Below are positions 3,591 to 29,184 of a stretch of 64,000 bases of DNA, one piece after another (position 1 is the first letter of the stretch; each line of letters begins with the position of its first letter). Location: positions 55,784-119,783 of IMG/VR virus record IMGVR_UViG_3300044846_005309. One strand, written 5' to 3'. The notes below the pieces were generated by a model, which saw only the letters and a list, made by a program, of their open reading frames with translations, was not told where the DNA came from and made no database searches. This DNA comes from a virus. The position numbers were made by a program, and so were the translations under genes.

Positions 3591-5414
3591 ATGCGGTATA
3601 TTCATTTTAAGAGGCTTAAAGCTACTAATTTTCTTTCTATTGGTAAGAAGCCTGTTGAAGTTGTATTCCGTCCCGGTCTTAATATTATTACCGGCCGTAA
3701 TTTTGATAAAGCTGATCGAGCTAACGGAGTAGGCAAATCAACTATTGCAGATGCAATGCATTTTGCATTGTATGGAAGCACCATAAGAGAACTAAAGAAA
3801 GAAAACATAGTAAATGATCAAGCCCCGGATAGTCTTTGTGAAGTAGAACTCGAGTTTGTTTGCATACAAGGAGAAACTAGTAACACTTATAAGATAGTAA
3901 GAACGCTCAATCCAACCAAATGTTATCTCTTTATGAACGATCAAGAAATAACTCGTTCAGGGGTACCGCAAACTACTGAGTATATTGTTGATATAATTAA
4001 AACTTCTTCTGAAGTTTTCCAGAATAGTGTAGTAATGACTATTAACAACACTGTACCTTTTATGGCGCAGAAAAAAGTTGAAAAGCGCAAATTCATTGAA
4101 GGCATACTCGGGCTTGAAGTGTTCGGTAATATGCTGCTTTTTGCACGTCATGACTACAATGAAACCAAACGTAATCTAGAAGTAGAAACAACTAAATTTG
4201 AAGAGATAAATCGCTCTTTACAGGATAATATAAAACAAAAAGAACTTTACGACGCAAACAAAGAAAAGAGACTTGAAACGCTTAAAGTACGTCAAACTAA
4301 TAATAGTAATGAGCTTTTTCTGCTTAAAGAAAAATTAGATAAGTTTGAGCCGGTAGATAGTGAAGCTAAAGCAAAACTAGAAGAAGAGCTTAAAAATTTT
4401 ACTAATGCTAAAAAAATATTAGCCGGAAATTTGCTAGAAACGGAAAGACTTATTACCGAGGCTAACACCCATATTAAAATTAATACCGATCGTAATAAAA
4501 AAATAAAAAAAGTAAACAGTCTATGCCCCCATTGCGGAAAAGATTTGGCCGAAGCTGTCAATACTCAATACGAAAAAGATAAAAATGATTGTATAAGAGA
4601 AATTGAAAAGTACGAAGAAGTACTAAAAACTAATACCCCTAAACACAAGGATATTACTAGTAAAATTAGTAAATTAGAAGAAAATTTAATTAAACTGCAA
4701 AACAGGTTTAACGAGTTTGTTATACGCAAAAAAGAAATAGAAAATATAAATTCAAGAATTACCCAGTTAGACGCATGGCAACAGCAACTATCTATAGATA
4801 TAGACAATCTTAATAAGGATTCAAATAATTTTGAAAAGATTATTCTAGATATAACGTCCCGCATAAACGAAACCAAAACTGGTATAACCGCTTTGCAGAC
4901 ACGTATTGAAATAATTGAAAACGCTAAACTAATAGTTTCAGAAGAAGGAGTAAAATCCTATATAGTTAAGAAGATTATTGAAGTATTAAACACTAGATTA
5001 GGGTTCTACTTGAAAAAACTTGAAAGTAACAGTATTGTGCGTTTTAATGAGTTTTTTGAAGAAATTATTACTAACGAGCGAGGCAAAGAATGTAGCTATT
5101 TTAATTTTTCAGGAGCTGAGCGTAAGGCTATAGATCTAGCCATGCTTTTTACTTTTCAGGATATAAGAAGAGCACAGGCTCAAGTATGTCTTAATTTATC
5201 TATGTTTGACGAGCTTTTTGACTCGTCTTTGGATGAAAAAGGTATTGAGTTAGTACTTGATATTCTTAAAGAAAGAGTAGATAACTATAATGAAGCTATT
5301 TATATTATTTCTCACCGTAAAGAAAGTAAAAAGTACTGTATAGGCGGAGAAATAATCTTCTTAGTAAAGAAAAACGGCATTACCACACGAACAACTAACT
5401 ATGACTTATCCTAA
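3591..5414 (+). CDS. recombination endonuclease ATPase subunit (T4 gp46/SbcC/Rad50-like)
   Basis: NFLSIG, Walker A NGVGKST, coiled coil with CPHC zinc hook, FSGAE signature, FDELFDSSLD Walker B, ISH. Confidence 0.92.
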   Translation: MRYIHFKRLKATNFLSIGKKPVEVVFRPGLNIITGRNFDKADRANGVGKSTIADAMHFALYGSTIRELKKENIVNDQAPDSLCEVELEFVCIQGETSNTYKIVRTLNPTKCYLFMNDQEITRSGVPQTTEYIVDIIKTSSEVFQNSVVMTINNTVPFMAQKKVEKRKFIEGILGLEVFGNMLLFARHDYNETKRNLEVETTKFEEINRSLQDNIKQKELYDANKEKRLETLKVRQTNNSNELFLLKEKLDKFEPVDSEAKAKLEEELKNFTNAKKILAGNLLETERLITEANTHIKINTDRNKKIKKVNSLCPHCGKDLAEAVNTQYEKDKNDCIREIEKYEEVLKTNTPKHKDITSKISKLEENLIKLQNRFNEFVIRKKEIENINSRITQLDAWQQQLSIDIDNLNKDSNNFEKIILDITSRINETKTGITALQTRIEIIENAKLIVSEEGVKSYIVKKIIEVLNTRLGFYLKKLESNSIVRFNEFFEEIITNERGKECSYFNFSGAERKAIDLAMLFTFQDIRRAQAQVCLNLSMFDELFDSSLDEKGIELVLDILKERVDNYNEAIYIISHRKESKKYCIGGEIIFLVKKNGITTRTTNYDLS

Positions 5415-6576
5415 TTTCGGCAATGTATTTGGAGCTCCGCAACTACCATTTGGCGTACCAGCTGTCGGTAACCCTATGGTCAACGCAGCACCTCAACAGG
5501 TTATGCAACACGGTGGGATGCCTAACGGCTTAGATCGAGCTATTAGTTTTGCTGCCGACCATCAAGGTTGCGGGTTCTGGAGAATGCATTGGCCGGAATT
5601 ACTAATTAACGGGCAGCAACTTGGAATTATTAACAATAATAATTTCATGATTTTGCAAGAGAACTTTTATGGTGGTATTAAGAGCGTACGTGTTCAAAGA
5701 CAGGTAACCCCTACTCAGCTGCAATTTGTAAAGTTTTTAAGAGAGCTTTCTAATAAAACTAACAAATTTAAAATTTATTACGAAATTGATGATGTTATTT
5801 TTCCAGAAGATATTCCTGTGTATAACAAGGCTCGAGAGGCATTTGTAGACCCAGTTATAGGGGCTACAGCTATAGAAATAATGAAACATTGCGATATGAT
5901 TACTACCCCGACTGCCTACATGTCTCAGTATTATCAAAAAAGAAGCGGGGTACCTGCAATAGTACTACCTAATTATATACCTAAGTTTTGGCTAGATAGA
6001 TTTTATACAAAATCTAAAATAGTTGAAAATTTTGATAGAAATAGAAAGCGGCCACGGGTAGGTTATGTCGGTAGCCCTACTCATTTCAATATTGCAAAAT
6101 TACCCGGGGTTCAAGATGACTTTAAAGGTATTGTAGAAGTTATTATTAAAACAGTAAAAAACTTTAAATGGGTGTTGATGGGGGGTCTCCCACAAGAACT
6201 TGAACACTATGTGCGTACCGGAGAAATTGAATACCAGCCCTGGGCTCGTATTTTTGATTACCCTTCAGTCTATGATAGTTTGAATCTTAATGTAGCTATT
6301 GCACCTATTCAAAATAATCCTTTTAATCTGGCAAAAGCTAATATTAAATACATTGAAGCAGGGGCGTTAGGTATCCCGTGTGTATGTCAAGATCTCGAGC
6401 CGTATAAAATTGCTCCTTTGCGTTTTAACACAGGGGATGAAATGATTGATAAAATTAAAAAATTGACTTCTGATAGAAAAACTTACCTCACCGAATCTGA
6501 TAATGCCCGCAAAGTTGCATGTAAATACTGGCTGGAAGATCATATTGATGAGTACGTAAAGCTATATTTTACTTGA
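5401..6576 (+). CDS. glycosyltransferase (GT-B/GT4-like)
   Basis: GCGFWR, YEIDD, VGYVGSPTH, IAPIQNNPFNLAKANIKYIEAGALGIP. Confidence 0.7.
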   Translation: MTYPNFGNVFGAPQLPFGVPAVGNPMVNAAPQQVMQHGGMPNGLDRAISFAADHQGCGFWRMHWPELLINGQQLGIINNNNFMILQENFYGGIKSVRVQRQVTPTQLQFVKFLRELSNKTNKFKIYYEIDDVIFPEDIPVYNKAREAFVDPVIGATAIEIMKHCDMITTPTAYMSQYYQKRSGVPAIVLPNYIPKFWLDRFYTKSKIVENFDRNRKRPRVGYVGSPTHFNIAKLPGVQDDFKGIVEVIIKTVKNFKWVLMGGLPQELEHYVRTGEIEYQPWARIFDYPSVYDSLNLNVAIAPIQNNPFNLAKANIKYIEAGALGIPCVCQDLEPYKIAPLRFNTGDEMIDKIKKLTSDRKTYLTESDNARKVACKYWLEDHIDEYVKLYFT

Positions 6577-6608: not shown

Positions 6609-9173
6609 ATGTACCGTAACGTTTATTATAGCTCTCGAGACGGGTTGATCCATCTCTTTACTTGGAATGATAAAGGAGAGCGAGTTATCAAGAAGATGGC
6701 ATTTCAGCCGTATTTTTACGTTGAGACGAATTCTGATAACGTAGACGCTGTATCTATCTTTAATACTAAACTAAAGAAAAAGGTTTTTCGCAATAGTTTT
6801 GATCGTAATAAAGCTGCGCAAGATGGAGCTATCAAGCGGCTTTACCATAATATTCAAGTAGAGCAGCAATTTTTAATAGATCAATTTAGTGAACAATACG
6901 ATAAACCCGAATTTACTGCTAACCCTATTAAGGTGTGTTTTCTGGATATCGAAGTATTCAGCCCTGATGAATTTCCGGAAGCTAAAGATGCAAAGCACCC
7001 TATCAATCTAATTACCATCTATGATAATTTATCTAAAACGTTTTACACATGGGGAACTAAGCCGTATACCTCTAAGCGTCAAAATGTAGTATATACAGAA
7101 TGCTCGAGCGAAGCCGATCTTCTAGAAAAGTTTTTAGAGTTTTGGGAGAATGGGTATTACCCGGACATTCTATCAGGGTGGAATACGGACTTTTTCGATT
7201 TTCCGTATTTAATTAACCGTATTACTAACTTACTCGGGGAAGATGCCGCAAAGCGGTTATCCCCGCTTAAGAGTCTGTGGTGCCGGAAAGGTATTTTTGT
7301 AAAGGGTCAAGAACTAGACCGCTGGTATATTCATGGCCTTGCAGCTATGGACTATCTTGAAGTCTACAAAGGTTTCGCTCGCGGGTTGCTTGAGTCATAT
7401 GCTCTCAACTTTGTTGCGCAGCACGAGCTAGGAGAAGGTAAGTTGGCTATTAACGCAACTAATCTAGCTACTCTTTCAGAGTCTGATTGGAATAATTTTG
7501 TAGATTATAACATTCAAGACGTTGACCTACTTGTGCGTATGGAGAACAAGCTTCAATTCTTTAAGATTATACGTATGTTAGCGTATAAGGGATTAACTAA
7601 TTTCGAAAGCGCGCTTGGTAAAGTCTCTATTGTAACTGGCTGCGTCTCCCTAGAAGCCCGTAAACATGGTATGGTTATACCTACGTTTGTAGAAGGGCCC
7701 ACAAGAGAAGCTATTGAAGGAGGTTATGTAAGAGATCCTGAACGAGGTCTTAAGACTGCTGTAGTTAGCTACGATGCTAACTCACTATATCCTAATACTA
7801 TCATTACTCTTAATATCTCCCCCGAAACTAAGGTAGGTAAAATTGTTAGTAGAGATAATGAAAATACCAACATACTTTTAACGAGTGGTAAAGAGTATAA
7901 ATTACCTAATGCTAAGTTTGAACAATTTGTAGCTTTGGAAAAACTGGCTATTTCTAAGGCTAATGTGTTATACACTCAAAAGAAGAAAGGAGTTGTGCCT
8001 TCTCTTATTGACGGGCTATATGCAGAACGAGTTGCTAACAAAAATCAGTACGTAGAGTATAAGAAAAAACTCAGTAAGTTAATTCCAGATACTGATGATT
8101 ATAGAGCGTGTAAGACTTTTATGGAAAGAGCGGATACTATTCAATACGTTATCAAAATTTTGCTTAATTCTATTTATGGTGTTTTTGCTAATAAATTTTC
8201 TCCTATTTGCGATAGTGATCATGCTGGGAGTATTACTCTCACGGGGCAATCTGTGGTTAAACAAGCAAGTGTTATCCTGGATGAATATGCTAAAACAAGA
8301 CATAGTATTGGGACTTCTCTTACTATTTACGGGGATACTGACAGTACTCACATTACTATACAGCCTATACTCGATAAGTTAAAATTAAAAATATTTCAGA
8401 ATAATAAAGTTACGCCTGAAGGGTTAGATCTTATTGATAAAGATATGGGGACATATCTTAATGATGAGATTAAAAAGTGGTCTGCTTCAGAGTTCAAATC
8501 AGTCGATCCTCGTTATTTCTTTAAACGAGAATCAATTTGTGATGTAGGGGTGTACCTAGAAAAGAAGCGCTATATTATTCACGTACTCAATGATGAAGGG
8601 GCAGACGTAAATAAGTTTAAATACGTAGGTGTCGAGATTGCTCGTTCTACCACACCTAAAAAAGCTAAAGAACTTATTAAGAAAGTAATTGAAACGTCCC
8701 TAGTAATGCAGGACCAGATTAATGCTAATAACCTTTACAAGCAAACCTACGAAAGCTTTAAGAAATTACAAATTGATGATATAGCTATTAGAGGGGGGTT
8801 AAGTGATTTAGAAAAGTATGAGAGTAAATGTGAGTACCCTTTTAAAATTGCTAAAGGCACTCCTAATCACGTAAAAGGTGCAATTTACTTTAATCACCTA
8901 CTTAGAAAGATGGGTTTAGATACAAAATACGAAAAAATTACTTCAGGGGGTAAGGTTAAAAAGATTTACGTTGCTCCTAATCGTTACCAAATCGATACGC
9001 TTTGCTATACCGCAACCTACCCAGTAGAATTTACTGAGTTTCAGGTAGATTATATTGAAATGTTTGATACACTTATTAAACCGCCTATCTTAGCAGTTTA
9101 TGAGGCTATTGGTTGGCGACTGCCCGATGTTGTTAATGAATCTGAAACCGATCTTTTTTCTTTATTCTCATGA
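6609..9173 (+). CDS. family B DNA polymerase (T4 gp43-like)
   Basis: Exo motifs DIEV, GWNTDFFDFPY, YNIQDV; polymerase motifs YDANSLYP, KILLNSIYG, YGDTDS, KKRY. Confidence 0.97.
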   Translation: MYRNVYYSSRDGLIHLFTWNDKGERVIKKMAFQPYFYVETNSDNVDAVSIFNTKLKKKVFRNSFDRNKAAQDGAIKRLYHNIQVEQQFLIDQFSEQYDKPEFTANPIKVCFLDIEVFSPDEFPEAKDAKHPINLITIYDNLSKTFYTWGTKPYTSKRQNVVYTECSSEADLLEKFLEFWENGYYPDILSGWNTDFFDFPYLINRITNLLGEDAAKRLSPLKSLWCRKGIFVKGQELDRWYIHGLAAMDYLEVYKGFARGLLESYALNFVAQHELGEGKLAINATNLATLSESDWNNFVDYNIQDVDLLVRMENKLQFFKIIRMLAYKGLTNFESALGKVSIVTGCVSLEARKHGMVIPTFVEGPTREAIEGGYVRDPERGLKTAVVSYDANSLYPNTIITLNISPETKVGKIVSRDNENTNILLTSGKEYKLPNAKFEQFVALEKLAISKANVLYTQKKKGVVPSLIDGLYAERVANKNQYVEYKKKLSKLIPDTDDYRACKTFMERADTIQYVIKILLNSIYGVFANKFSPICDSDHAGSITLTGQSVVKQASVILDEYAKTRHSIGTSLTIYGDTDSTHITIQPILDKLKLKIFQNNKVTPEGLDLIDKDMGTYLNDEIKKWSASEFKSVDPRYFFKRESICDVGVYLEKKRYIIHVLNDEGADVNKFKYVGVEIARSTTPKKAKELIKKVIETSLVMQDQINANNLYKQTYESFKKLQIDDIAIRGGLSDLEKYESKCEYPFKIAKGTPNHVKGAIYFNHLLRKMGLDTKYEKITSGGKVKKIYVAPNRYQIDTLCYTATYPVEFTEFQVDYIEMFDTLIKPPILAVYEAIGWRLPDVVNESETDLFSLFS

Positions 9174-9979
9174 TTAAAATCTCACACGAATCCCCTCTTA
9201 GTATGCTTGAGATCTCTCGGACATACAACGATTATGACTATGCTCTGGTACATCTTTTCGAGACTAACCCTGAGTATTTTTCTTTTTTTAAAGAAAGTTT
9301 AAAGTTAAACCGAACTGTTCTTCTAGATAATTCTATTTTTGAACTCGGTGTTGCTTTCGAAACAAAAAAATATATTAATTGGATTAATAATTTGGAGCCT
9401 ACAGAGTATATTATACCCGACGTACTTGAAAATTGCGATAAAACCATTCAAGAAGCAAAATACTGGATGGGTGGTGCAATTTTTTCTTGTTATAGTGATT
9501 CTGTACCGATCGGAGTTATACAAGGTAAGACCTATGCAGAATTTGTTAAATGCTACACTGCTTTAGATTATTTAGGGGTAGAGAAACTAGCTATTTCCTT
9601 TGATTATAGTTACTATTTAACGGTTTTTCCGCATCCTAATAAATGGGTAAGTTATGCCATGGGAAGAGTGATGACTCTAAAAAGACTTTTGGACGATGGT
9701 GTCATTAATACCAAGAAGCCACACCACCTACTTGGCTGCGCACATCCTCGCGAATATAGTTTTTATAACGATCCCTCTTTTAATTGGATCAAGACTTTAG
9801 ATACTTCATCTCCTATTGTACACGGTATTAAGAAAGTAGGTTATGGAGATCTTTTTGCAAACTGGACAAAAGAAAAAACTAAACTCGTCGACCTACTAGA
9901 TTGTGTTCCCGATGAAGAGCAAGAACAATGGATAGCAGAAAATATAAGAGACTTTAGAAAGTTTGTCCATAATGGATAA
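9170..9979 (+). CDS. TGT-like barrel protein, candidate divergent DpdA (7-deazaguanine transglycosylase)
   Basis: LLDNS, IPDV, GVIQG, HHLLG and LDTSS motifs resemble tRNA-guanine transglycosylase/DpdA barrels; overlaps the polymerase stop and sits with queF and a purN-like gene. Confidence 0.5.
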   Translation: MIKISHESPLSMLEISRTYNDYDYALVHLFETNPEYFSFFKESLKLNRTVLLDNSIFELGVAFETKKYINWINNLEPTEYIIPDVLENCDKTIQEAKYWMGGAIFSCYSDSVPIGVIQGKTYAEFVKCYTALDYLGVEKLAISFDYSYYLTVFPHPNKWVSYAMGRVMTLKRLLDDGVINTKKPHHLLGCAHPREYSFYNDPSFNWIKTLDTSSPIVHGIKKVGYGDLFANWTKEKTKLVDLLDCVPDEEQEQWIAENIRDFRKFVHNG

Positions 9980-10205
9980 GACGATTGAAACTTTAACTGA
10001 AATTGTACGAATTAATTATCCACATTTATTAGACGGAGATACAAAAATAATCGACTATTGCTTTTGGAACGCAACAAGCAATAAAGAATTACCCGTCAAA
10101 AAACTAGAAAATGTTAAATCCTATAAACTTACCCATGACAATTTTGATTTAGTGCTTGTAATTTTTTTCAGTGATAATACAATAGGTTTTAGATTAAAAA
10201 TATGA
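9972..10205 (+). CDS. hypothetical protein
   Basis: Small ORF overlapping both neighbouring genes in the operon. Confidence 0.55.
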   Translation: MDKTIETLTEIVRINYPHLLDGDTKIIDYCFWNATSNKELPVKKLENVKSYKLTHDNFDLVLVIFFSDNTIGFRLKI

Positions 10206-10795
10206 AAAAAGACTTTTACTGGAAAGCGCTTTTTTCTCAAAGCGGGTCTGAGATACTAGAGGTTTCAACTCGAGTTGGGCGCTTCCCGAATGCAATTATT
10301 ACTAACAAGCCTTTAGAAGATATGGATCGTATTAATCCTAGACTTCTAGAGTTAGCTTTTGATCGGTTTATTTTTATTTCTCAAAAGCCATCGATAGAGG
10401 AATACAAAGAATCTATTAGACGGGCTGATATGGTAACATTACACGGTTTTTTACGTATTTTACCTTCTCAAATTTGTGGCCGTTATAGGATTTTTAATGG
10501 TCACCCAGGCCTTATTACTAAGTTTCCTGCGCTTAAAGGTAAAGATCCTCAGAAAAAAGTTTGGGATAACTATGCAAATACACCATACAAGCTTCATGGA
10601 CATGTTATACATGAAGTTATACCTGAAGTAGATGCTGGTAAGGTTGTTTCTGAAAAACAGTTTTATAGCGAAAACATCTATACCGATTTTAATAATATCG
10701 ATTCTTATATTGCTAAGCTGCACAGTCTGGCAATTGAAAATTGGGTTGAGTTTATTAAAAAACGTATTATACTAAATAATTCTTATGCGAAATAA
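10202..10795 (+). CDS. PurN-like formyltransferase (candidate DpdN, preQ1 formyltransferase)
   Basis: FSQSGS, LHGFLRIL, IFNGHPGL, HEVIPEVDAGKV formyltransferase motifs. Confidence 0.75.
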   Translation: MKKDFYWKALFSQSGSEILEVSTRVGRFPNAIITNKPLEDMDRINPRLLELAFDRFIFISQKPSIEEYKESIRRADMVTLHGFLRILPSQICGRYRIFNGHPGLITKFPALKGKDPQKKVWDNYANTPYKLHGHVIHEVIPEVDAGKVVSEKQFYSENIYTDFNNIDSYIAKLHSLAIENWVEFIKKRIILNNSYAK

Positions 10796-11354
10796 TTACA
10801 AAGCATGTATTTGTGGTGCGCATTCTCAAGGTAAAACTACATTAGTTAATGCTCTTAAAAAAGAAACTTTTTTAACGAGTGAATGTCATTTTTCCTTTCG
10901 TACCAATCTTACAAGGGGTTTGAAAGACTTAAACATACCTATTAATGAGAACGGCACGTCTTTGACACAATACTTAGTCATGGCAAGGCATTTAGAATAT
11001 GCTACTGCTCCAGGTAATTGGATTTTAGATCGCGGAGCTTTAGATGGCATTGCTTATACGGGGTATTTTTACGAAAAAGAACAAGTAAAAAAGGAAGTAT
11101 ATGAAGCTGCTGTAGAAATATATAGAGATGTAATTAAGTTGTATGACAAGATTTTTTATATTGTACCTGAGTTAAATCTAGAAGATGATGGGGTACGTAG
11201 TACAAATAAAGAGTTTTTTGAAAGCGTGGTTAAGCAGTTTGAGTTCTACGTTAAGCATAACTCTATGCCTTCTGACAAATTTAAATTCGTTATGGGCTCT
11301 AAACAAGAGCGAGTAGAAACTGTAATTAATGAAATTAAAAAAGACTTTCAATGA
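10785..11354 (+). CDS. P-loop nucleotide kinase-like protein (AAA_28/dNMP-kinase-like)
   Basis: GAHSQGKTT Walker A, LDRGALD, EDDGVR. Confidence 0.75.
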   Translation: MRNNYKACICGAHSQGKTTLVNALKKETFLTSECHFSFRTNLTRGLKDLNIPINENGTSLTQYLVMARHLEYATAPGNWILDRGALDGIAYTGYFYEKEQVKKEVYEAAVEIYRDVIKLYDKIFYIVPELNLEDDGVRSTNKEFFESVVKQFEFYVKHNSMPSDKFKFVMGSKQERVETVINEIKKDFQ

Positions 11355-12277
11355 ATACTAATAATATCGATAAAGTACTCGGTCAAAGAGTAGATTCTCC
11401 TACTACCTATACGCCCGATATTCTCGTACGAGAAGAGCGTCAACGTAACCGTACATATCTTAATATCCAGAATCAAAACCTGCCATTCGTGGGTTATGAT
11501 ATATGGAATGGTTATGAGTGTAGTGCAATGACTGAAAACGGATTGCCTGTCGCGTGCGTAGCTAAAGTTGTTTATACTGCAACTAATCCTTATATCGTCG
11601 AATCTAAGTCAATGAAGCTATATTGGAACGGTTTTAACATGCAGCCTATGGGTAAAACTGTAAAGGAAGTTCTTAAAAATATTAAGACTACTGCAGAAAA
11701 AGATCTTAGCGCTCTTCTAGAGACTGACGTAAAAGTCCAGTTGTTCTCTCAAGTACTCAACGATAATATTACTGAAGATTACGTATCATCTAGAGCTCGC
11801 TGGGAAATTAAATATACCAACGACTGTTGGGGTACTCTTGAAACTCTGCCCGGCGCGGATAAAATTAAGTTTGAGGTTTTTAACGAAGATTCTAACTTAC
11901 TTGAAGTTTACTCTGAGGAAAAAGAAGGGTTCGATTATTTTAGAAGCTCCTTACTTCGCTCTAATTGCAAGATTACTAAGCAGCCTGACTCAGGAGACAT
12001 TTATATCTATTATAAGGGTAATTACAAGATAACCCCTTACTCTCTTCTTAAGTGGATCGTTTCATTTCGGAATGAATGTCACTTTCACGAAGAAATTTGT
12101 GAAGCAGCGTATAAGCGTCTCTGGGATGTATTGCACCCTAAGGAACTTCTTGTAACTTGTTTCTATGCCCGGCGTGGTGGTTGGGATATTGTACCGACTC
12201 GTGCTAATAAAAAGAGTCTGCTTGATAAAGACCTTATTAACCCCAAGTCTCCTTATTTTAAGTTCCCTCGTCAATAA
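11351..12277 (+). CDS. queF: 7-cyano-7-deazaguanine (preQ0) reductase QueF
   Basis: QueF motif VESKSMKLYWN, catalytic SNCKITKQPD, FHEEICE, YARRGG. Confidence 0.9.
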   Translation: MNTNNIDKVLGQRVDSPTTYTPDILVREERQRNRTYLNIQNQNLPFVGYDIWNGYECSAMTENGLPVACVAKVVYTATNPYIVESKSMKLYWNGFNMQPMGKTVKEVLKNIKTTAEKDLSALLETDVKVQLFSQVLNDNITEDYVSSRARWEIKYTNDCWGTLETLPGADKIKFEVFNEDSNLLEVYSEEKEGFDYFRSSLLRSNCKITKQPDSGDIYIYYKGNYKITPYSLLKWIVSFRNECHFHEEICEAAYKRLWDVLHPKELLVTCFYARRGGWDIVPTRANKKSLLDKDLINPKSPYFKFPRQ

Positions 12278-12312: not shown

Positions 12313-12660
12313 ATGGACAATAAAATCATTGTATTTCTTGATAATATTCAGCGTACTATCGTAGCCACGCTTGTATCTGATAATGGTACTAGTATTACCG
12401 TTACTAAGCCTGCTATTCTTAATGTGAGCCCTACCCCTGAAAAGAAGCTCCAGGTGCAGCTGTATCCAGTTATCTTTAGAGAGTTTCTGAAGGATAGAGA
12501 TGTTTTTCCTACCTGGACTTACAGCAAGACTGCGGTTACTACAACCGACAGCCTAGATCTCGAGCCTAACTTGATTCTTCAGTATAATGAGATGTTTAAG
12601 GTAGTTAAGAACGAGCCTGCTCCTACTATCAAGCTGTTCGACGCAGACGAGAACAACTAA
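12313..12660 (+). CDS. hypothetical protein
   Basis: Clean ORF ending 1 nt before uvsX. Confidence 0.6.
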   Translation: MDNKIIVFLDNIQRTIVATLVSDNGTSITVTKPAILNVSPTPEKKLQVQLYPVIFREFLKDRDVFPTWTYSKTAVTTTDSLDLEPNLILQYNEMFKVVKNEPAPTIKLFDADENN

Positions 12661-13801: not shown

Positions 13802-13829
13802 AAAAGCTAAGGGCAACCTTAGCTTTTTT
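13802..13829 (+). terminator. intrinsic terminator after uvsX
   Basis: AAAAGCTAAGG-GCAA-CCTTAGCTTTTTT hairpin with U-tract. Confidence 0.8.
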
Positions 13830-15212: not shown

Positions 15213-16124
15213 GTGGATCCAAAGAAGATATTTGTTTTTACAGACTCCGACTTAGACGGAGCGGCCAGTCTTTTAACCTTACACTGGGCTCTAAAAGCCA
15301 ACCCTGGCGATATAAAATTCCATACAGTTACAGTTTCAAATTTTAGAAAAGAATTTTTACTTTGGGCAGCAGAGAACAGTATAGAGAACTACGATGCGGT
15401 ATATTTTTTGGATCTAGATACAAGTACAAGTTTTGACTTAATTGATAGCAAAAAGTCTATTATTATAGATCACCACGAAACACACGATACAAGCAAATAT
15501 AAAAATGCTACAACTAATGTTGTGGTTACGTCCTCTTGTGCGAAGTTACTCTATTTACATTTTAAAGACAAACTAACGTCTTTAAATAACGAGCAAAAAT
15601 ATTTAATAGCGTTAGCTAATGACTATGACAGTTATGCCTTTAAACTGCCTGAGTCATATAATCTTAACTGTGCCTTTTCAAACTCTCAAAAAACACTAGG
15701 TAAGAACAAGACCTACAAATTTTTAGAACGTTTTTATAATGGTTTTACCGGGTTTACCTCATTAGAAAACAATATTATAAAAGAATATGTAACCGGTAGA
15801 GATGCAGCTATATCTACTTTACAAATCTATTCAGGCAATGTACCTATAAGCAAGCAAAACTTACAGATTACCGGGACAATGGGTACCAAATATATAAACG
15901 ATATTTGCGACCATCTTCTTAAAACTTATAATTCAGATATCGTATTTTTTGTTAACACAAATAGTTCTCACGTTTCTTTTAGAAAAAAGAAAACTTGTAA
16001 TGTAAATTTAGCTAAACTAGCTGAGTTTTTATGTGGTGGTGGCGGCCACGAATACGCAGCTGGTGGAAAGATCACGGAAAAATTTATGAATTTTTCTAAA
16101 CAATTGTCCCTAATTACAGCTTAA
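15213..16124 (+). CDS. DHH/DHHA1 phosphoesterase
   Basis: DSDLDG, IIDHH, GGGGHEYAAG. Confidence 0.85.
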   Translation: MDPKKIFVFTDSDLDGAASLLTLHWALKANPGDIKFHTVTVSNFRKEFLLWAAENSIENYDAVYFLDLDTSTSFDLIDSKKSIIIDHHETHDTSKYKNATTNVVVTSSCAKLLYLHFKDKLTSLNNEQKYLIALANDYDSYAFKLPESYNLNCAFSNSQKTLGKNKTYKFLERFYNGFTGFTSLENNIIKEYVTGRDAAISTLQIYSGNVPISKQNLQITGTMGTKYINDICDHLLKTYNSDIVFFVNTNSSHVSFRKKKTCNVNLAKLAEFLCGGGGHEYAAGGKITEKFMNFSKQLSLITA

Positions 16125-19284: not shown

Positions 19285-19622
19285 TGGCTAATAAAATTAC
19301 AACACAGAGTTATTTTATAAAACGACTTAAAGATAGCGGTTATGTCGTTTATAAAATATTTGACGAGTATAATGAAGCTGATCCCCGCTCGTGGACTGTT
19401 ATGATTGATCCAGGTAATGCATCTATTTTTTGTACTTGTTACGTGAACGATCAATCTATGTTTGGAGAGACTTATTTTGAAATCTACGATGGTGGTCAAT
19501 ATATACCTGAAAAGTTTAAGTTGAAGACAGATTCAATTGAGGTTATAATAAGCTATTTAGTTAAACATGGAATCAATAACAAATCAGACAACTACAACAG
19601 CAAGTCGAATTCAAACATATAA
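19284..19622 (+). CDS. hypothetical protein
   Basis: ORF coupled (TAATG) to the clamp gene. Confidence 0.6.
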   Translation: MANKITTQSYFIKRLKDSGYVVYKIFDEYNEADPRSWTVMIDPGNASIFCTCYVNDQSMFGETYFEIYDGGQYIPEKFKLKTDSIEVIISYLVKHGINNKSDNYNSKSNSNI

Positions 19623-19632
19623 TTTTACCAAT

Positions 19633-20295
19633 ATGAGCAAAAACGGTCTACAACACCCCCTTCTGCCTACTGCTAATAGTAGTATGCTTGTTAGTGATAG
19701 CGAGAAGAAGGAGATTATTGAAAAAGCGGCTATAGCTTATGAAGGCTTTCTTGATGCTCTACGCATAGACTGGCGCAACGATGTAAATAGTGCGGACACA
19801 CCTCGTCGTGTCGCTAAGTCTTATGTTTGCGATCTTATTAAGGGCTGCTATGAAGGACCCCCTAAGATCACTACATTTCCTTCTGATGGATATGACGGTA
19901 TTGTAAGTCAAATGAATATCCCGGTTACGTCTATGTGCTCTCATCACCATCTTGCTTTTACTGGTGTAGCGCATGTTGCTTATATCCCTGATAAAAACGG
20001 TCAAGTTATTGGACTTTCTAAATTAAATCGCATTGTTGAACATTATGCACGTAGGCCTCAAATACAAGAAGGACTGACAGTGCAGGTACATAATGCTATT
20101 AATGAACTCTGTAAGGGTAACCAAGGGGTTGCCGTTGTTCTTAAGTGTGCACATACTTGCGCATGCCATCGCGGTGTAAAACATCACGGTTGTTCTATGA
20201 TCACTTCGAAGCTTTCCGGTAGTTTTATGAACGAAGGGGCAGCTCGCAAAGAGTTTTACGATTTTATTGCTTCTGCAGAGCGTAGCAGTAAATAA
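19633..20295 (+). CDS. folE: GTP cyclohydrolase I
   Basis: DTPRRVAK, SMCSHH, GLSKLNR, RRPQIQE, HTCACHRG; start at MSKNG chosen. Confidence 0.93.
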   Translation: MSKNGLQHPLLPTANSSMLVSDSEKKEIIEKAAIAYEGFLDALRIDWRNDVNSADTPRRVAKSYVCDLIKGCYEGPPKITTFPSDGYDGIVSQMNIPVTSMCSHHHLAFTGVAHVAYIPDKNGQVIGLSKLNRIVEHYARRPQIQEGLTVQVHNAINELCKGNQGVAVVLKCAHTCACHRGVKHHGCSMITSKLSGSFMNEGAARKEFYDFIASAERSSK

Positions 20296-25131: not shown

Positions 25132-25206
25132 GCCTCTATAGCACAGTGGTAGTGCAACAGTTTTGTAAACTGTAGGTCGTTGGTTCGAATCCGACTGGAG
25201 GCTCCA
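25132..25206 (+). tRNA. tRNA-Thr(UGU)
   Basis: Cloverleaf, ACAGT-TT TGT AA-ACTGT, GTTCGAATC, CCA end. Confidence 0.92.
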
Positions 25207-25221
25207 TTTTCAACGACTCGT

Positions 25222-25587
25222 TTATACAGCATTGTATGCTGTGTTGTAATCTCGATTTTTATTTTGAAGCAATCTATATAAAACTTTGTCGTTCCCCGTT
25301 TGTTTTACTTCAGCATCATTTATATACTTATTTACAGTGTTGTAATCTTTATTAAGCCAAGCAATAGTACCTAAATAGTATTTTACTATACCTTGAGAAT
25401 CGTCGGTTTTAGCTTGGGTAGCTGCTTTATTCATCATAGATATAGCTTCTTGCGTTTTACCTTGAATAGCTAATTCTTGAGCAGCATGCCAAGTGTCTAG
25501 TGAAGGAATATTTAGCGGGTTAGTGTTACCCGTATAATTTTCGATTAACGATGAAAGATACAAATTTACCCTTTTATCAAATTTCAT
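25222..25587 (-). CDS. hypothetical helical (TPR-like) protein inside the tRNA array
   Basis: Antisense ORF filling the gap between two tRNAs; TAAATA upstream on the minus strand. Confidence 0.55.
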   Translation of the reverse strand: MKFDKRVNLYLSSLIENYTGNTNPLNIPSLDTWHAAQELAIQGKTQEAISMMNKAATQAKTDDSQGIVKYYLGTIAWLNKDYNTVNKYINDAEVKQTGNDKVLYRLLQNKNRDYNTAYNAV

Positions 25588-25601
25588 ATACAATATTTAT
25601 T

Positions 25602-25693
25602 GGAAGCGTGGGTGAGTGGATAAAAATCGCTTGTCTTGAAAACAAGAATCGGTGATGAGCCGGTCGTAGGTTCGAATCCTACCGCTTCCGCCA
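25602..25693 (+). tRNA. tRNA-Ser(UGA)
   Basis: CTTGT-CT TGA AA-ACAAG, long variable arm, GCCA end. Confidence 0.92.
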
Positions 25694-25698
25694 ATTTT

Positions 25699-25897
25699 GC
25701 GCGAGGGGTAACCAATAGTCGGTTCTTCAATGGGCCAGTACCCTGAGTGGGCTGAGAAATACCAAGCACAAACAGGAAACCCGTGCCGGACTAGTACGGA
25801 AGTAGGAAGAGATGCATCTCGCTCCCTACAAGTCGGGGTTGGACGAAATTGCTTGGGGCTCTAAGAAGGTAAGGTTGACAGCCTCCCTCGCGCGCCA
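25699..25897 (+). ncRNA. unidentified ~200-nt RNA with tRNA-like acceptor stem and CCA end
   Basis: 5' GCGCGAGGG pairs with 3' CCCTCGCGC, followed by GCCA; GC-rich; flanked by T-rich spacers like the tRNAs. Confidence 0.6.
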
Positions 25898-25902
25898 TTT
25901 TT

Positions 25903-25987
25903 GGGAGTATGGCACAGCGGCAACTGCAGGAGACTGTAAATCTCCCGCCTTCGGGCTTCATTGGTTCGAGTCCAATTGCTCCCACCA
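25903..25987 (+). tRNA. tRNA-Tyr(GUA)
   Basis: GGAGA-CT GTA AA-TCTCC, variable arm, ACCA. Confidence 0.92.
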
Positions 25988-25993
25988 CTTTAA

Positions 25994-26075
25994 GCGGACG
26001 TGTCGTAATGGTAGCCGAGATGGTCTTAGAAGCCATTGCTTATGCGTGTGGGTTCGAGTCCCTCCGTCCGCACCA
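25994..26075 (+). tRNA. tRNA-Leu(UAG)
   Basis: ATGGT-CT TAG AA-GCCAT, variable arm, ACCA. Confidence 0.9.
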
Positions 26076-26094
26076 CTTTAAAATAAATATTATT

Positions 26095-26376
26095 ATGAAA
26101 ACACTAGCATTGCTTATTATTAGTTTGACTATGACCGGCTGCTACGCATCCCCGGTTATTCGTGGCCCTCGAGTAATTGTTGTTGATCCGCATCCTCGGG
26201 TAATTATTGTTGAACCAGCTCCTCGAGTAATTGTAACGAGAGAATACCCTCGTTATCCTAGTGTTTCGTGGCATATTGATGTAAATTTTGGACGGGGTCA
26301 CGGTCATGGCCATGTTTACGGCCCTATTCGTGGTCATTCGAATCCTGGCATTTGGCGTCACTATCGCCATTGGTAA
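26095..26376 (+). CDS. small lipoprotein-like protein (Pro/Arg/His/Gly-rich)
   Basis: MKTLALLIISLTMTGC signal with lipobox; PRVI repeats; start at 26095 because the longer ORF overlaps tRNAs. Confidence 0.6.
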   Translation: MKTLALLIISLTMTGCYASPVIRGPRVIVVDPHPRVIIVEPAPRVIVTREYPRYPSVSWHIDVNFGRGHGHGHVYGPIRGHSNPGIWRHYRHW

Positions 26377-26379
26377 TTT

Positions 26380-26467
26380 GGAAGGATGGCTGAGCGGCCT
26401 ATAGCAGAAGTTTACTAAACTTCCGAAGAGCAATCTTCCGGGGGTTCGAATCCCTCTCCTTCCGCCA
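26380..26467 (+). tRNA. tRNA-Ser(ACU)
   Basis: GAAGT-TT ACT AA-ACTTC, long variable arm, G73, CCA. Confidence 0.85.
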
Positions 26468-26469
26468 TC

Positions 26470-26546
26470 GCGCCAGTGTCGTTGAAAGGCTAAACTACTG
26501 TTTGCAAAACAGTTACATGCAGGTTCGATTCCTGTCTGGCGCTCCA
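26470..26546 (+). tRNA. tRNA-Cys(GCA)
   Basis: ACTGT-TT GCA AA-ACAGT, U73, CCA. Confidence 0.88.
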
Positions 26547-26551
26547 TTTAT

Positions 26552-26628
26552 GGCGATTGTAGCTCAATGGTCAGAGTATTCGATTGTGATTCGAAGGGTT
26601 GCGAGTTCGAGTCTCGTCAGTCGCCCCA
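26552..26628 (+). tRNA. tRNA-His(GUG)
   Basis: TTCGA-TT GTG AT-TCGAA, G-1:C73, CCA. Confidence 0.92.
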
Positions 26629-26666
26629 AATATTTGATTTAGAACGTATCTAAACTAAATTTTAAT

Positions 26667-27341
26667 ATGAGTTTAGTTTTTGAAAAAATACTACCTTTAG
26701 TTAATAAAATTACCGAAAAATTTAATTTGGTATCATATGAAATTACAGAAGAAGGTATTAAGGATTACGACTGGTATAATAAAATTTTTTATTCTTTTAA
26801 CAAATTTAGAAGAGCTCATATAGAAGTTCTAGATCGTAGAGAACAAAACAATATGTGGATAATGCATACCACCGTTTTTCCGCATTTAGATGATGATGCG
26901 CCTATATTTGGTTTCGATATAATTTGTACAGGTAATAAGGTGTCTGGAGTGTTTCATGATCTATCTATTACAACTAACCCTAACCATCCATTACAGGTAA
27001 ACTTTAAAAAACTAGTTAGTAATTTAACTTGGAAAAGAGAAAGAGAATTACCCGAATGGGGCAAAGCAATTTTTTCGGAAGATATGATCGCCGCAGGTGG
27101 AAGTAATACTGAACAAGAACTACAGCAAATAGTGGATGTCTGTTTAGAAAGCTTAGATGTTTATTTGAGAAACATAGGAGCTACAAATTTTCCAAGTCCA
27201 ATTTCATCCAAAGAAATGCAGAATAGATATTGCAAGTATCAAAAGATGAATCCATACCCAGTTAAGATGTTAACTAATTTTGGATTGACAGAAGAGCAGG
27301 CTCGTCAGTTTGTTGAAAAACATCTCTTTCCTGAAGTTTAA
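26667..27341 (+). CDS. ferredoxin-dependent bilin reductase (PcyA/PcyX-like)
   Basis: FRRAHIE, WIMHTTVFP, PIFGFDII, FHDLS, RELPEWGKAIFS, QNRYC..QKMNP. Confidence 0.85.
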   Translation: MSLVFEKILPLVNKITEKFNLVSYEITEEGIKDYDWYNKIFYSFNKFRRAHIEVLDRREQNNMWIMHTTVFPHLDDDAPIFGFDIICTGNKVSGVFHDLSITTNPNHPLQVNFKKLVSNLTWKRERELPEWGKAIFSEDMIAAGGSNTEQELQQIVDVCLESLDVYLRNIGATNFPSPISSKEMQNRYCKYQKMNPYPVKMLTNFGLTEEQARQFVEKHLFPEV

Positions 27342-27364
27342 TCCTTTTTTCTGTAAATATTGCT

Positions 27365-27970
27365 ATGAAATATATAGCAATATTTTTTGCATTATTACTA
27401 ACTAGTTTTGCACAAAATTTAAAAGTATCTACTAAGACTACAAACTACACTCTAACCACTAATGACACTAACACTCTTATTGCATTTATGAGTGTTAATG
27501 CCCCCTTAGTGAGAATGACTGTACCTTCAGAAACGTCTTCAAGAAATACCTTTCCTACCGGGGCTAGAATATACGGTACATCTTTAACAAACTCGATAGT
27601 TCACATAACCGGTTCATCAGGCGTGACAATTATAAGTCCTGAAAACTCATTTCGTAGTAAAAACTATGGTTCAAGATGGGAGCTTATAAAATTATCAAAG
27701 AATATGTGGTTACTTGAAGGAGATTTATATTCCTTAGAAATGAATGCTTTTATTGGAGATGATGTAGTAATAAAAGCAGTTGTTGATGCCGATGCTACAG
27801 GTCCTTTCATTTATAAGTGGTATAAAAATGGAGTACTAATACCGGATGCTACTTTTGCTAGTTTAAAACTTAATAATATAGACCTTTCAACTTCTGGAAA
27901 GTATTATGCCATAGTAAGTAATAGAGCAGGTTCTTACACGGGAGAAACGACTACTTTAATAGTTAGATAA
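27365..27970 (+). CDS. secreted protein with C-terminal immunoglobulin domain
   Basis: Signal peptide; YKWYKNG...SGKYYAIVSNRAG Ig I-set pattern. Confidence 0.75.
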   Translation: MKYIAIFFALLLTSFAQNLKVSTKTTNYTLTTNDTNTLIAFMSVNAPLVRMTVPSETSSRNTFPTGARIYGTSLTNSIVHITGSSGVTIISPENSFRSKNYGSRWELIKLSKNMWLLEGDLYSLEMNAFIGDDVVIKAVVDADATGPFIYKWYKNGVLIPDATFASLKLNNIDLSTSGKYYAIVSNRAGSYTGETTTLIVR

Positions 27971-27988
27971 CTGCATAAGTATATTAGT

Positions 27989-28345
27989 ATGAAAAAACTA
28001 ATATCTGCTATATTCGCAAGTATTGTATTGACCTCTGCAGTAGTAGCGCAAGTCGCGCCCGTACCTAACCCAGATGTCTCAGAGACAGTACTAACAAATA
28101 CAAAAGTTACTTTGACAGCCACTGCTGATGGTACAGCCCCAATTACATATGCTTGGTTCAAGGGTACTACCCAAGTAGCAACAGGCTCTACTCTAGTTTT
28201 TAATAGTATTCAAACTGCCGATGCAGGGGTATACAAGGCTGTAGCTACTAACCCAGGCGGTTCAACTGATAGTAATCTCGCAACGCTTGTTGTTATTACC
28301 CCAGTTGCTCCTTTCAATGTAAAGATTACTATTACTAAGGGTTAA
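27989..28345 (+). CDS. secreted single immunoglobulin-domain protein
   Basis: Signal peptide; GTAPITYAWFKG...DAGVYKAVATNPGG. Confidence 0.8.
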   Translation: MKKLISAIFASIVLTSAVVAQVAPVPNPDVSETVLTNTKVTLTATADGTAPITYAWFKGTTQVATGSTLVFNSIQTADAGVYKAVATNPGGSTDSNLATLVVITPVAPFNVKITITKG

Positions 28346-28352
28346 TTTTTTT

Positions 28353-28427
28353 ACGGACGTGGTATAGTGGTCGTGCAGCAGCCTCCAAACCTGCCCTAAG
28401 AGAGTTCGATTCTCTCCGTCCGTGCCA
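28353..28427 (+). tRNA. tRNA-Trp(CCA)
   Basis: GCAGC-CT CCA AA-CCTGC, GTTCGATTC, GCCA. Confidence 0.85.
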
Positions 28428-28431
28428 CTTT

Positions 28432-28752
28432 ATGAGATTTATAGCTATATTTCTCTTTGCTTCAATAGCTTACTGTTCTGATACAATTACGTTTTCGTCG
28501 TATCAGGCCCCTAAGCTATACAATTATAGTTATTCCTATAGTAAGGATAGAGACGATGATAGACACTATAGTAAGGATAGAGACGATGATAGACACTATA
28601 GTTGGGATAGAAAATATAGCTATAAAGATGATAAGTATGAATATGGTCATCCTTCTATTCCTGAGCCTTCTACTTGGACTTTACTTGCTGGCGTGTGCGC
28701 CTTGTCGGCAGCATTTATTAAACGGCGTAAAACGCTTACTAGTAAACCCTAA
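28432..28752 (+). CDS. PEP-CTERM sorting-domain protein
   Basis: Signal peptide; C-terminal IPEPSTW + hydrophobic helix + KRRK. Confidence 0.85.
   Translation: MRFIAIFLFASIAYCSDTITFSSYQAPKLYNYSYSYSKDRDDDRHYSKDRDDDRHYSWDRKYSYKDDKYEYGHPSIPEPSTWTLLAGVCALSAAFIKRRKTLTSKP
28536..28602 (+). repeat. 30-bp tandem repeat (YSKDRDDDRH x2 plus partial copy)
   Basis: CTATAGTAAGGATAGAGACGATGATAGACA occurs twice exactly, in frame in the PEP-CTERM gene. Confidence 0.9.
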
Positions 28753-28984
28753 ATGTTTACTCGCGATAGCAATAACTATACTAGTTACTATAGTAGCGGT
28801 TTTTACAGTTAGCGGTAAGAAAGAGATTGGGGTATTTAACAGAGAAATCAAATGCCCTAATGCCGTTAAGAATGAATATGGTATCTTTTTAGCAAGTGGA
28901 GACTGCAAATGTTCAGAATGCTCGCCTAAAACAACTCCACCCACTCCTTTGAATGCGCCAGTTGTAAGCGATTCAAAATAATCT

Positions 28985-29062
28985 GGGGTGGTAGCTCAAT
29001 TGGTTAGTAGCGACAGCCTGTCACGCTGTAGGCTGCGGGTTCGAGTCCCGTCCATCCCGCCA
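28985..29062 (+). tRNA. tRNA-Asp(GUC)
   Basis: ACAGC-CT GTC AC-GCTGT, GCCA. Confidence 0.92.
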
Positions 29063-29068
29063 TTTTTT

Positions 29069-29143
29069 TGCCCAGTAGCTCAGTGGCAGAGCATGCGACT
29101 GTTAATCGCGTGGTCGTTGGTTCGATCCCAACTTGGGCAGCCA
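29069..29143 (+). tRNA. tRNA-Asn(GUU)
   Basis: TGCGA-CT GTT AA-TCGCG, GCCA. Confidence 0.92.
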
Positions 29144-29184
29144 TTTTAGTGGAAAATAGTGTAAGTATGAGTATATTATAGTCT

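Follow-up and report, generated by a model that had tools for sequence, protein, structure and literature searches.

A probable formyl-dPreQ1 guanine-replacement module in an uncultured T4-like phage and the linkage of a kinase-type gene to DpdA3

Phages that replace the guanine of their DNA completely with a 7-deazaguanine raise the question of where the exchange is made, on finished DNA or on free nucleotides before replication. We took up this question at a locus in 64,000 nucleotides (nt) of viral DNA, here called the window, which comprises bases 55784–119783 of the 119,783-base IMG/VR record IMGVR_UViG_3300044846_005309 (completeness 57% by CheckV). Directly after a T4 gp43-like DNA polymerase gene, the window holds open reading frames (ORFs) for a DpdA3-type 7-deazaguanine transglycosylase (ORF269), a small protein (ORF80), a DpdN-type formyltransferase (ORF197), a P-loop kinase (ORF189) and QueF (ORF308; Table 1). 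This cassette very probably serves an uncultured T4-like phage as its guanine-replacement module and is the orthologue of the DpdA3/DpdN system that Flavobacterium phage immuto_2-6A carries. We tentatively favor the view that guanine is exchanged, and probably formylated as well, on free deoxyguanosine or deoxyguanosine monophosphate (dGMP) instead of on finished DNA. Our direct observations concern which genes are present, their orthology, linkage and fusions, and the folds and conserved residues of their products. The original prediction, made from the sequence of the window, had listed overlapping genes for a barrel like that of tRNA-guanine transglycosylases (TGTs), a PurN-like formyltransferase, a P-loop kinase and QueF after gp43; the ORF map and the family matches bear this out, although the 80-amino acid (aa) ORF80 (9963–10205) had been overlooked.

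The same gene order, DpdA3, small ORF, DpdN, AAA_28 kinase and QueF, is found in immuto_2-6A, where the products are a DpdA of 264 aa, an ORF of 50 aa, a formyltransferase of 175 aa, a “thymidylate kinase” of 174 aa and a QueF of 306 aa. Between the two phages, DpdA3, DpdN, the kinase and QueF are 47, 41, 35 and 40% identical, respectively, the small ORFs are unrelated, and FolE, QueD, QueE and QueC are encoded in both immuto_2-6A and the contig studied here. Deoxyguanosine (dG) was reported to be undetectable in immuto_2-6A DNA, which held 345,000 formyl-dPreQ1 (fdPreQ1) per 10^6 nt (PMC10516641). Judged by sequence homology, the cassette is the gene-for-gene orthologue of the sole cluster with demonstrated formyl-dPreQ1 DNA, which supports the original proposal that this phage replaces guanine with fdPreQ1 or a relative. 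Only 7 of the 35 immuto region proteins have relatives on this contig (FolE, QueD, QueE, DpdA, the formyltransferase, the kinase and QueF), and the immuto polymerase belongs to family A, which indicates that the module is common to different phage backbones. Here the backbone is a T4-like replication operon (polB, UvsX, a gp41-like helicase and gp32), and the module, unlike that of immuto_2-6A, is joined to the polymerase operon through overlap of stop and start codons. The MazG-like and phosphoribosyltransferase neighbors present in immuto_2-6A were not found here.

The arrangement is shared by many uncultured relatives. Among the 70 closest IMG/VR loci (L005–L074), polB abuts DpdA3 in 56/56 with at least 2.6 kb upstream, DpdN and the kinase are present in all 50 that reach 1.9 kb downstream, and QueF is present in all 49 that reach 2.9 kb downstream. 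The locus adds a large uncultured T4-like clade with predicted complete fdPreQ1 replacement of guanine. More widely, relatives of ORF269 at E <= 0.001 number 3931 in 90% protein clusters and 3215 among 50% representatives.

ORF269 was placed in its family by comparison with phage proteins. It matches immuto DpdA at E = 3e-85, a homologue in Campylobacter phage CP220 at about 40% identity (E = 2e-37), the DpdA3 of Cellulophaga phage phiST at 27% identity over 72% of the query (E = 3e-5) and phrog_19058 at 1e-45. On these similarities it is assigned to the DpdA subfamily DpdA3, a name given to these proteins by Cui et al. 2023 (PMC10516641), who describe DpdA3 as a distant homologue. Scans of ORF269 with Pfam, including the TGT model PF01702, and with NCBIfam gave no match at E <= 0.01, and a profile of ORF269 with 30 relatives found no chain in the PDB by sequence at E <= 10. 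An AlphaFold (AF2) model computed from the 30 relatives had a predicted local distance difference test (pLDDT) score of 91.3. When this model was compared with the PDB by Foldseek, all 50 of the 50 matches listed were TGTs or bacterial DpdA (best E = 7.7e-9), the bacterial DpdA structure 7UI4 ranking 44th among them. VIA-align superposed the model on the Z. mobilis TGT with a Z of 17.8 and a root mean square deviation of 3.3 Å over 235 of 269 residues. These two comparisons indicate that the TGT-like barrel is real; the structure search that had been suggested for 9170–9979 thus returned a TGT fold, with DpdA3 as the subfamily.

The residues expected of such an enzyme are also in place. D53, F57, D84, H185/H186 and D211 are invariant across the 30 relatives, and hhalign pairs them with D72, F76, D114, H196 and D215, which are invariant in 9g-type DpdA1 (E = 0.0055, at a probability of only 6.7%). 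The Asp/Phe/Asp/His/Asp set is therefore invariant in both DpdA3 and 9g-type DpdA1, and 9g DpdA1 and bacterial DpdA (PDB 7UI4) share the TGT barrel. For bacterial DpdA, Asp95 and Asp256 are reported to be the acid/base and the nucleophile and Asp130 and His181 to bind the base, with Phe99 four residues after Asp95; the four-residue spacing of D53 and F57 in ORF269 mirrors that of Asp95 and Phe99. As far as the alignments can tell, the putative catalytic pattern of ORF269 agrees with these roles, and we predict that the protein swaps guanine for preQ1 or formyl-preQ1 at the deoxyribose C1'. TGTs carry a zinc-binding Cys/His motif, and the structural zinc site is reported to be conserved in TGT and bacterial DpdA. 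ORF269 has no cysteine cluster after D211, C128 being the sole invariant cysteine across the 30 relatives. We rejected the absent site as a sign of a non-DNA enzyme, since the alignment of 9g-type DpdA1 likewise lacks a cysteine cluster. Net charge and isoelectric point (pI) were likewise rejected as a test of DNA binding, the median pI being 5.46 for DpdA3 (n = 107) and 5.77 for 9g-type DpdA1 (n = 11). Two DpdA3 genes are disturbed by mobile elements: one representative (P0123) is joined to a homing-endonuclease part (phrog_314, 8e-32), and one locus has two DpdA3-like ORFs in succession (L131:6572-8231).

The supply of preQ1 appears to be complete. ORF308 carries QueF_N (PF14819, 1.8e-26) and QueF (PF14489, 1.7e-16) in one chain and matches TIGR03138 at 2.6e-63 with 214 bits, under the cut-off of 293. 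These matches identify it as a divergent type II QueF, a predicted NADPH-dependent reductase of preQ0 to preQ1. FolE lies in the window, as had been stated, although the position then given for it, 19633, falls within the ORF at 19567–20295. QueC, QueD and QueE had correctly been said to lie outside the window, with the advice to look elsewhere in the genome, and all three are found upstream on the same contig, which, going by the family matches, encodes the full preQ1 pathway. The Pfam Radical_SAM model did not detect the divergent QueE that the NCBIfam QueE models find, which makes negative family searches on this phage weak. A short phosphoribosyltransferase-like ORF stands among QueE, QueD and FolE in 16 DpdA3 loci (e.g. 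L001:8671-9066), with a Pribosyltran match of 1e-8 in immuto_2-6A; it could serve guanine recycling or deazapurine ribonucleotide synthesis. None was found in this contig.

ORF197 is the likely formyltransferase of the module. In PurN, the Asn and His of an N-x-H motif and a later Asp have catalytic roles, and N10-formyl-tetrahydrofolate is the established donor. ORF197 matches immuto DpdN at E = 5e-46 and Formyl_trans_N (PF00551) at 31.7 bits (cut-off 26.1); the PurN equivalog model TIGR00639 gave 37.4 bits against a cut-off of 150.1, over residues 73–154 only. N99, H101 and D144 of ORF197 are invariant in 21 relatives and align to the N-x-H(PS) and the D (ElDaG) of solved PurN chains (best E = 7.9e-12). 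At the N-terminal loop, DpdN has FSQ[ST]GSE and the PurN chains aligned with it have SGxGSN; we considered this loop as a hint of a phosphorylated substrate and dropped the idea, as it aligns with the PurN loop but has an invariant Glu. The predicted reaction of ORF197 is formylation of preQ1 at its 7-aminomethyl group. Cui et al. recognize DpdN by its being encoded together with DpdA and the FolE-to-QueF genes (PMC10516641), and ORF197 stands beside DpdA3 and in the same cassette as QueF, with FolE, QueC, QueD and QueE on the contig. The role of DpdN in formylation was predicted, not validated, by those authors (PMC10516641).

ORF80 gave no match in Pfam, PHROG or NCBIfam scans. Its relatives occupy 67 loci at 36–82% identity, invariably between DpdA3 and DpdN and on T4-like backbones only, and comparison with the 50-aa ORF at the equivalent place in immuto_2-6A showed no relationship (E = 0.54).

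The remaining member of the cassette, ORF189, matches AAA_28 at 43.2 bits (cut-off 27, E = 6e-11) and phrog_2107 “thymidylate kinase” at 2e-24; its immuto homologue is gp68, and it is 34% identical to gp057 of CP220. G11, G16, K17 and T19 of its Walker A motif are invariant in 26 relatives. Against the PDB, the kinase profile found NadR ribosylnicotinamide kinase at 4e-6, deoxyguanosine and deoxynucleoside kinases at 1e-4 and thymidylate kinases at 3e-3, and Foldseek with the ORF189 model (pLDDT 90.8) placed deoxynucleoside kinases, NadR and thymidylate kinases near-equal at E values of 1e-6 to 1e-5. Pfam Thymidylate_kin (PF02223) did not match ORF189 at E <= 0.01, and the immuto homologue reached 17.3 bits against the cut-off of 27. 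ORF189 thus belongs to the nucleoside/nucleotide-kinase fold, and it is predicted to phosphorylate a modified deoxynucleoside or deoxynucleotide. An attempt to choose between a nucleoside kinase and a nucleoside monophosphate kinase failed, the three kinase types matching at similar levels.

We next surveyed the neighbors of DpdA3. Two IMG/VR scans, the second seeded with diverse DpdA3 representatives, gave 422 and 536 confirmed relatives of ORF269; the 80 best-scoring loci of each were taken, which is not random sampling, and every ORF in them was searched with iterated hidden Markov models (HMMs). Lineages were defined by clustering the DpdA3 proteins of both scans and of three cultured phages, requiring at least 1.5 kb on both sides, and neighbors were counted within 2.5 kb. 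Among 54 lineages at 90% identity, 45 had an AAA_28 kinase, 6 a DUF3310 ORF and 3 an AAA_18 P-loop protein, and none was without one of these. The 20 lineages obtained at 70% identity gave the same picture (14 with AAA_28, 1 with AAA_28 and DUF3310, 2 with DUF3310, 3 with AAA_18 and 0 with none). The architectures seen were DpdA3-DpdN-kinase-QueF, DpdA3-kinase-QueF without DpdN, kinase-DpdA3 and DpdA3-DpdN-DUF3310-QueF.

Cultured phages showed the same linkage. Relatives of DpdA3 occur in 26 cultured-phage records (15 Campylobacter, 5 Cellulophaga, 4 Flavobacterium, 1 Weizmannia and 1 Chryseobacterium) and relatives of the kinase in 53 (35 Streptomyces, 14 Campylobacter and 4 Flavobacterium). 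Where a record holds both, the two genes are neighbors, in 14/14 Campylobacter records, at a distance of 62 nt, and in 4/4 Flavobacterium records. CP220 (Campylobacter Firehammervirus) is an example: its gp056 and gp057, the DpdA3 (54681–55433) and the AAA_28 kinase (55496–55927), adjoin as they do here, yet CP220 has neither DpdN nor QueF, the pair lies between tail genes, and an HD + AAA_33 P-loop protein is encoded upstream. Its DNA is reported to carry dADG in complete replacement of dG (PMC10516641). Adjacency in Campylobacter phages that lack DpdN and QueF, and in every evaluable lineage sampled, indicates that the kinase is tied to DpdA3 and not to formylation, which strengthens the argument that the original prediction had drawn from the kinase. 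In phiST, reported to have dDG in complete replacement (PMC10516641), a small AAA_18 P-loop protein that is unrelated to the ORF189 kinase (E = 0.10) directly precedes DpdA3, MazG lies two genes further up and a DNA polymerase downstream, and there is no QueF or DpdN. The 35 Streptomyces phage records carry a kinase relative that is 26–28% identical and annotated “thymidylate kinase” (e.g. NC_048721 68219–68791), and no DpdA3 match was found in them; in eight listed Streptomyces rows, the feature under the kinase match also includes a “methyltransferase.”

Eight loci without AAA_28 have a DUF3310 ORF of 84–114 aa in the kinase slot between DpdN and QueF (e.g. L115:8303-8557 and L130:4408-4671). 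The two such ORFs that were scanned matched PF11753 at E = 2e-12 and 1e-8, and an HMM of the DUF3310 ORFs matched T7 gp1.7, which is annotated “nucleotide kinase,” over residues 120–182 (E = 1e-7 for this single sequence). T7 gp1.7 phosphorylates dGMP and dTMP. In one locus, L091, a DpdA3-DUF3310 fusion comes after an AAA_28 kinase gene.

Gene fusions tie the members of the cassette together as well. We searched the 150 best DpdA3 representatives and 31 longer relatives of DpdN. Some of the DpdA3 representatives exceed the usual length of the family: P0147 and P0253 join DpdA3 to DpdN, and in P0221 and P0218 the C-terminal part is DUF3310 or a PHROG “nucleotide kinase.” The 31 longer DpdN relatives comprised 15 DpdA3-DpdN fusions, 3 DpdN-AAA_28 kinase fusions (P0274, P0285 and P0292), 3 with an N-terminal part, 4 tandem DpdN and 6 others. 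The part ahead of DpdN is ~170 aa long (P0275, P0279 and P0282); P0275 and P0279 have a precomputed PF02223 match, one of them PF13521 also, and the part in P0282 has a weak AAA_28 match only (E = 0.0055). A single-sequence kinase query for longer, fused forms found none, whereas the DpdN profile did find fusions, and a single-sequence query with P0221 found no locus in IMG/VR. As a control, the 18 loci of 9g-type DpdA1 showed one weak AAA_28 match (E = 8e-4, in a 374-aa ORF), no AAA_18 and one DUF3310.

In literature searches, which did not cover supplements, no discussion of a kinase in connection with DpdA3 was found. The main texts of Cui 2023 (PMC10516641) and Hutinet 2019 (PMC6884629) contain the word “kinase” 0 times, which indicates that the linkage was not weighed there; the supplements lie outside this count, and the gene tables of Cui et al. 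may mention a kinase.

From these data, we infer the enzymatic steps, which substrates DpdA3, DpdN and the kinase use, and what the final base is, the last by orthology at 35–47% identity. FolE, QueD, QueE and QueC would convert GTP to preQ0, and QueF would reduce preQ0 to preQ1. DpdA3 would exchange guanine for the 7-deazaguanine at the deoxyribose, and DpdN would formylate the 7-aminomethyl group with, by analogy with PurN, N10-formyl-tetrahydrofolate as donor, the end product being virion DNA with formyl-dPreQ1 in place of dG. If the exchange occurs at the nucleotide level, DpdA3 would turn dG or dGMP and preQ1 into the dPreQ1 nucleoside or nucleotide and guanine, the kinase would phosphorylate the modified product and the phage polymerase would incorporate the triphosphate. 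DpdA3, DpdN and the kinase would then form a coupled enzyme set, and pairwise fusions among them exist. It is quite possible, if short of probable, that DpdA3 is the first TGT-fold enzyme to perform base exchange on free deoxynucleosides or deoxynucleotides, and that with DpdN and the kinase it builds a formyl-dPreQ1 pool.

We lean toward the nucleotide level because a DNA-level route leaves the kinase idle, although no gene accompanies DpdA3 more constantly than one of kinase type, and because three unrelated families are found in the kinase place and kinase-DpdN fusions exist. The same direction is indicated by the reports of Cui et al. that complete modification is found in DpdA3 phages only, other DpdA types reaching at most about 30%, that DpdA3 activity could not be shown in E. 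coli, and that the ADG nucleoside was detected in CP220-infected cells (PMC10516641). For Campylobacter phages, a route through a modified dGTP (deoxyguanosine triphosphate) had been proposed earlier, before any DpdA was known there (PMC6884629). By comparison, the DpdAs that act at the DNA level give partial modification (in 9g, dG replacement by DpdA reaches at most about 27%, as cited in PMC6884629), the DpdA1 loci (n = 18) have no clear P-loop kinase neighbor, and DpdA3 is shorter; bacterial DpdA is reported to require the DpdB ATPase.

Pre-replicative base replacement has precedents in phages, namely the dCTPase, dCMP hydroxymethylase and gp1 kinase of T4 and MazZ, PurZ and DatZ of Z-genome phages. 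The logic of these pathways, a base-altering enzyme with a dedicated kinase, would recur here: a kinase-type gene is coupled to DpdA3 in 54/54 lineages, fusions exist, and the 18 DpdA1 control loci gave no clear AAA_28 match. A deoxynucleoside triphosphate (dNTP) hydrolase, the other element of this logic, is matched by hydrolase-type neighbors in three cultured complete-replacement phages: in immuto_2-6A a PRA-PH/MazG-like protein, encoded two genes ahead of DpdA3, in phiST MazG and in CP220 the HD plus P-loop protein. Unlike the T4 and Z-genome pathways, the base would be changed by TGT-fold transglycosylation, and a dNTP hydrolase was not found in this clade.

Several observations weigh against an exchange on free nucleotides. 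To our knowledge, no TGT-fold enzyme acts on a free nucleotide, the characterized TGT and DpdA members all acting on polynucleotides, and the catalytic set of DpdA3 is unchanged, so that the sequence offers no argument for a mononucleotide substrate. Complete pre-replicative replacement is expected to need removal of dGTP. Searches of this contig for MazG, HD, PRA-PH and DUF1599 found none, and MazG and HD were each found in 0/5 related T4-like records, all six records, this contig included, being 37–65% complete. Such dNTPase-type neighbors occur in just 7/46 lineages with long flanks. The kinase is assigned by sequence and fold to neither nucleoside nor monophosphate substrates. The DUF3310 ORFs of 84–87 aa, which span part of T7 gp1.7, may not be kinases, and AAA_28 and DUF3310 need not be equivalent, as both are present in L091. 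The DpdA1 control covers few loci, and these differ little from one another. We also considered the DHH/DHHA1 phosphoesterase (15213–16124) as a stand-in for a dGTPase and rejected it, as nothing links it to the pathway and it is confined to the T4-like clade (33 loci). This gene lies inside the replication operon and is missing from immuto-, CP220- and phiST-type loci.

The published alternative is also a serious possibility, though not the one we would choose first. On this view, DpdA3 acts with very high efficiency as a transglycosylase on DNA and puts preQ1 in place of guanine in newly made phage DNA; DpdN would formylate free preQ1 or the dPreQ1 in DNA, and the kinase would serve nucleotide supply or salvage, like T4 gene 1, or a side function. 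Cui et al. hold all such modifications to be post-replicative, since every such phage has a DpdA (PMC10516641), and theirs is the sole DpdA3 paper that our literature searches found. The TGT fold and the catalytic residues match those of DNA- and tRNA-acting relatives, a dGTP-removing enzyme was not found in this clade, and the DpdA3-DpdN fusions (15/31) are compatible with either route. However, this account leaves the kinase without a role despite the adjacency of a kinase-type gene in all 54 lineages, the replacement of the kinase by an unrelated family in the same slot and its fusion to DpdN, and it has to accommodate complete replacement reported for DpdA3 alone together with an activity on DNA that could not be demonstrated in E. 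coli. The polymerase linkage that the original prediction had read as a further sign of a pre-replicative route does not discriminate, for the 9g dpdA lies two genes from a polymerase and the CP220 DpdA3 lies between tail genes. Of that proposal, the part that rested on the kinase has gained support and the part that rested on the polymerase has not, no dGTP-removing enzyme was found in the genome or in the five related records, and exchange on free nucleotides stands as our inference.

It is improbable, by comparison, that the module makes another 7-deazaguanine, plain dPreQ1 or a further derivative, with a DpdN that is inactive or uses another acceptor and an ORF80 that may add a step. The product here is predicted by orthology, DpdN is 41% identical to a protein whose role is itself only predicted in print, and ORF80 is clade-specific; against this, all 21 relatives keep the catalytic triad of PurN, DpdN is kept in 50/50 clade loci that reach far enough, and DpdA3-DpdN fusions exist. 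That ORF269 acts on tRNA and the module raises preQ1/queuosine-type modification of GUN-anticodon tRNAs, the phage's own included, is very unlikely: the window has 22 tRNAs, with all of the queuosine (Q) family (Tyr-GTA, His-GTG, Asp-GTC and Asn-GTT), and Q boosting has been raised for phages with que genes but without DpdA (PMC6884629), yet the immuto, CP220 and phiST homologues accompany fully modified DNA, ORF269 has 269 aa against 337–382 residues in the matched tRNA TGT chains, and Q synthesis has no step for a formyltransferase or a kinase.

At the level of transcription, the cassette appears to be part of the replication operon. From polB through ORF269, ORF80, ORF197 and ORF189 to ORF308, successive stops and starts overlap by 4, 17, 4, 11 and 4 nt, in that order, and UvsX, a DnaB/gp41-like helicase, the DHH phosphoesterase, gp32 and FolE follow downstream. 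The earliest convincing terminator-like hairpin lies past UvsX (13802–13827), and promoter-like sites between 6000 and 14000 number 26, against 25.9 +/- 5.6 in shuffles, i.e. chance level. Overlapping ORFs, the lack of a promoter excess and the position of the hairpin beyond UvsX support this assignment. The polymerase gene itself is context and stands outside the modification pathway.

Table 1. Genes of the cassette, its polymerase neighbor and the preQ0 supply genes. Coordinates are those of the window; the prefix C1 marks contig positions that precede the window.
Feature	Position	Strand	Basis
Family-B (T4 gp43-like) DNA polymerase, polB	6609–9173	+	DNA_pol_B 9e-23, DNA_pol_B_exo1 4e-17, phrog_262 5e-186
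ORF269, DpdA3-type 7-deazaguanine transglycosylase, 269 aa	9170–9979	+	TGT fold, immuto DpdA homology
ORF80, 80 aa, TTG start	9963–10205	+	T4-like-clade relatives only
ORF197, DpdN-type formyltransferase (PurN paralogue), 197 aa	10202–10795	+	Formyl_trans_N
ORF189, AAA_28 P-loop kinase, 189 aa	10785–11354	+	AAA_28
ORF308, bimodular (type II) QueF	11351–12277	+	QueF_N + QueF
FolE, GTP cyclohydrolase I	19567–20295	+	GTP_cyclohydroI 3.1e-46; 58% identity to immuto FolE (tblastn)
QueC	C1:39182-39814	-	206.9 bits
QueD	C1:45351-45743	-	63.6 bits
QueE, divergent	C1:44527-45330	-	Best five NCBIfam matches all QueE models, E 2e-12 to 1e-6, all under curated cut-offs

Other features of the window were noted in passing. 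A 391-aa glycosyltransferase-like ORF (5401–6576; phrog_7162, 5e-23), flanked by an SbcC/gp46-like gene and the polymerase gene, may have DNA or a host surface sugar as its target. For ORF115 (12313–12660), an Atlas search returned clusters of hypothetical viral proteins, a weak lead to Sm_like, and nothing else. The tRNA genes are arrayed at 25132–34326 on the + strand. A phage-encoded transfer-messenger RNA was found at 32656–33059 (103.5 bits; tag peptide predicted by ARAGORN), and a Pistol ribozyme match at 33923–33974 (39.8 bits against a gathering threshold of 34.5, E = 8e-4) directly follows tRNA-Val in the array.

The gene set of the module has been described before, and the comparative result on the kinase and DpdA3 matters more. 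This linkage turns the question of whether complete 7-deazaguanine replacement precedes or follows replication into one of simple enzyme assays. The route decides how such DNA could be made enzymatically, and it also decides which defenses are available to the host, enzymes of the nucleotide pool or glycosylases that act on DNA.

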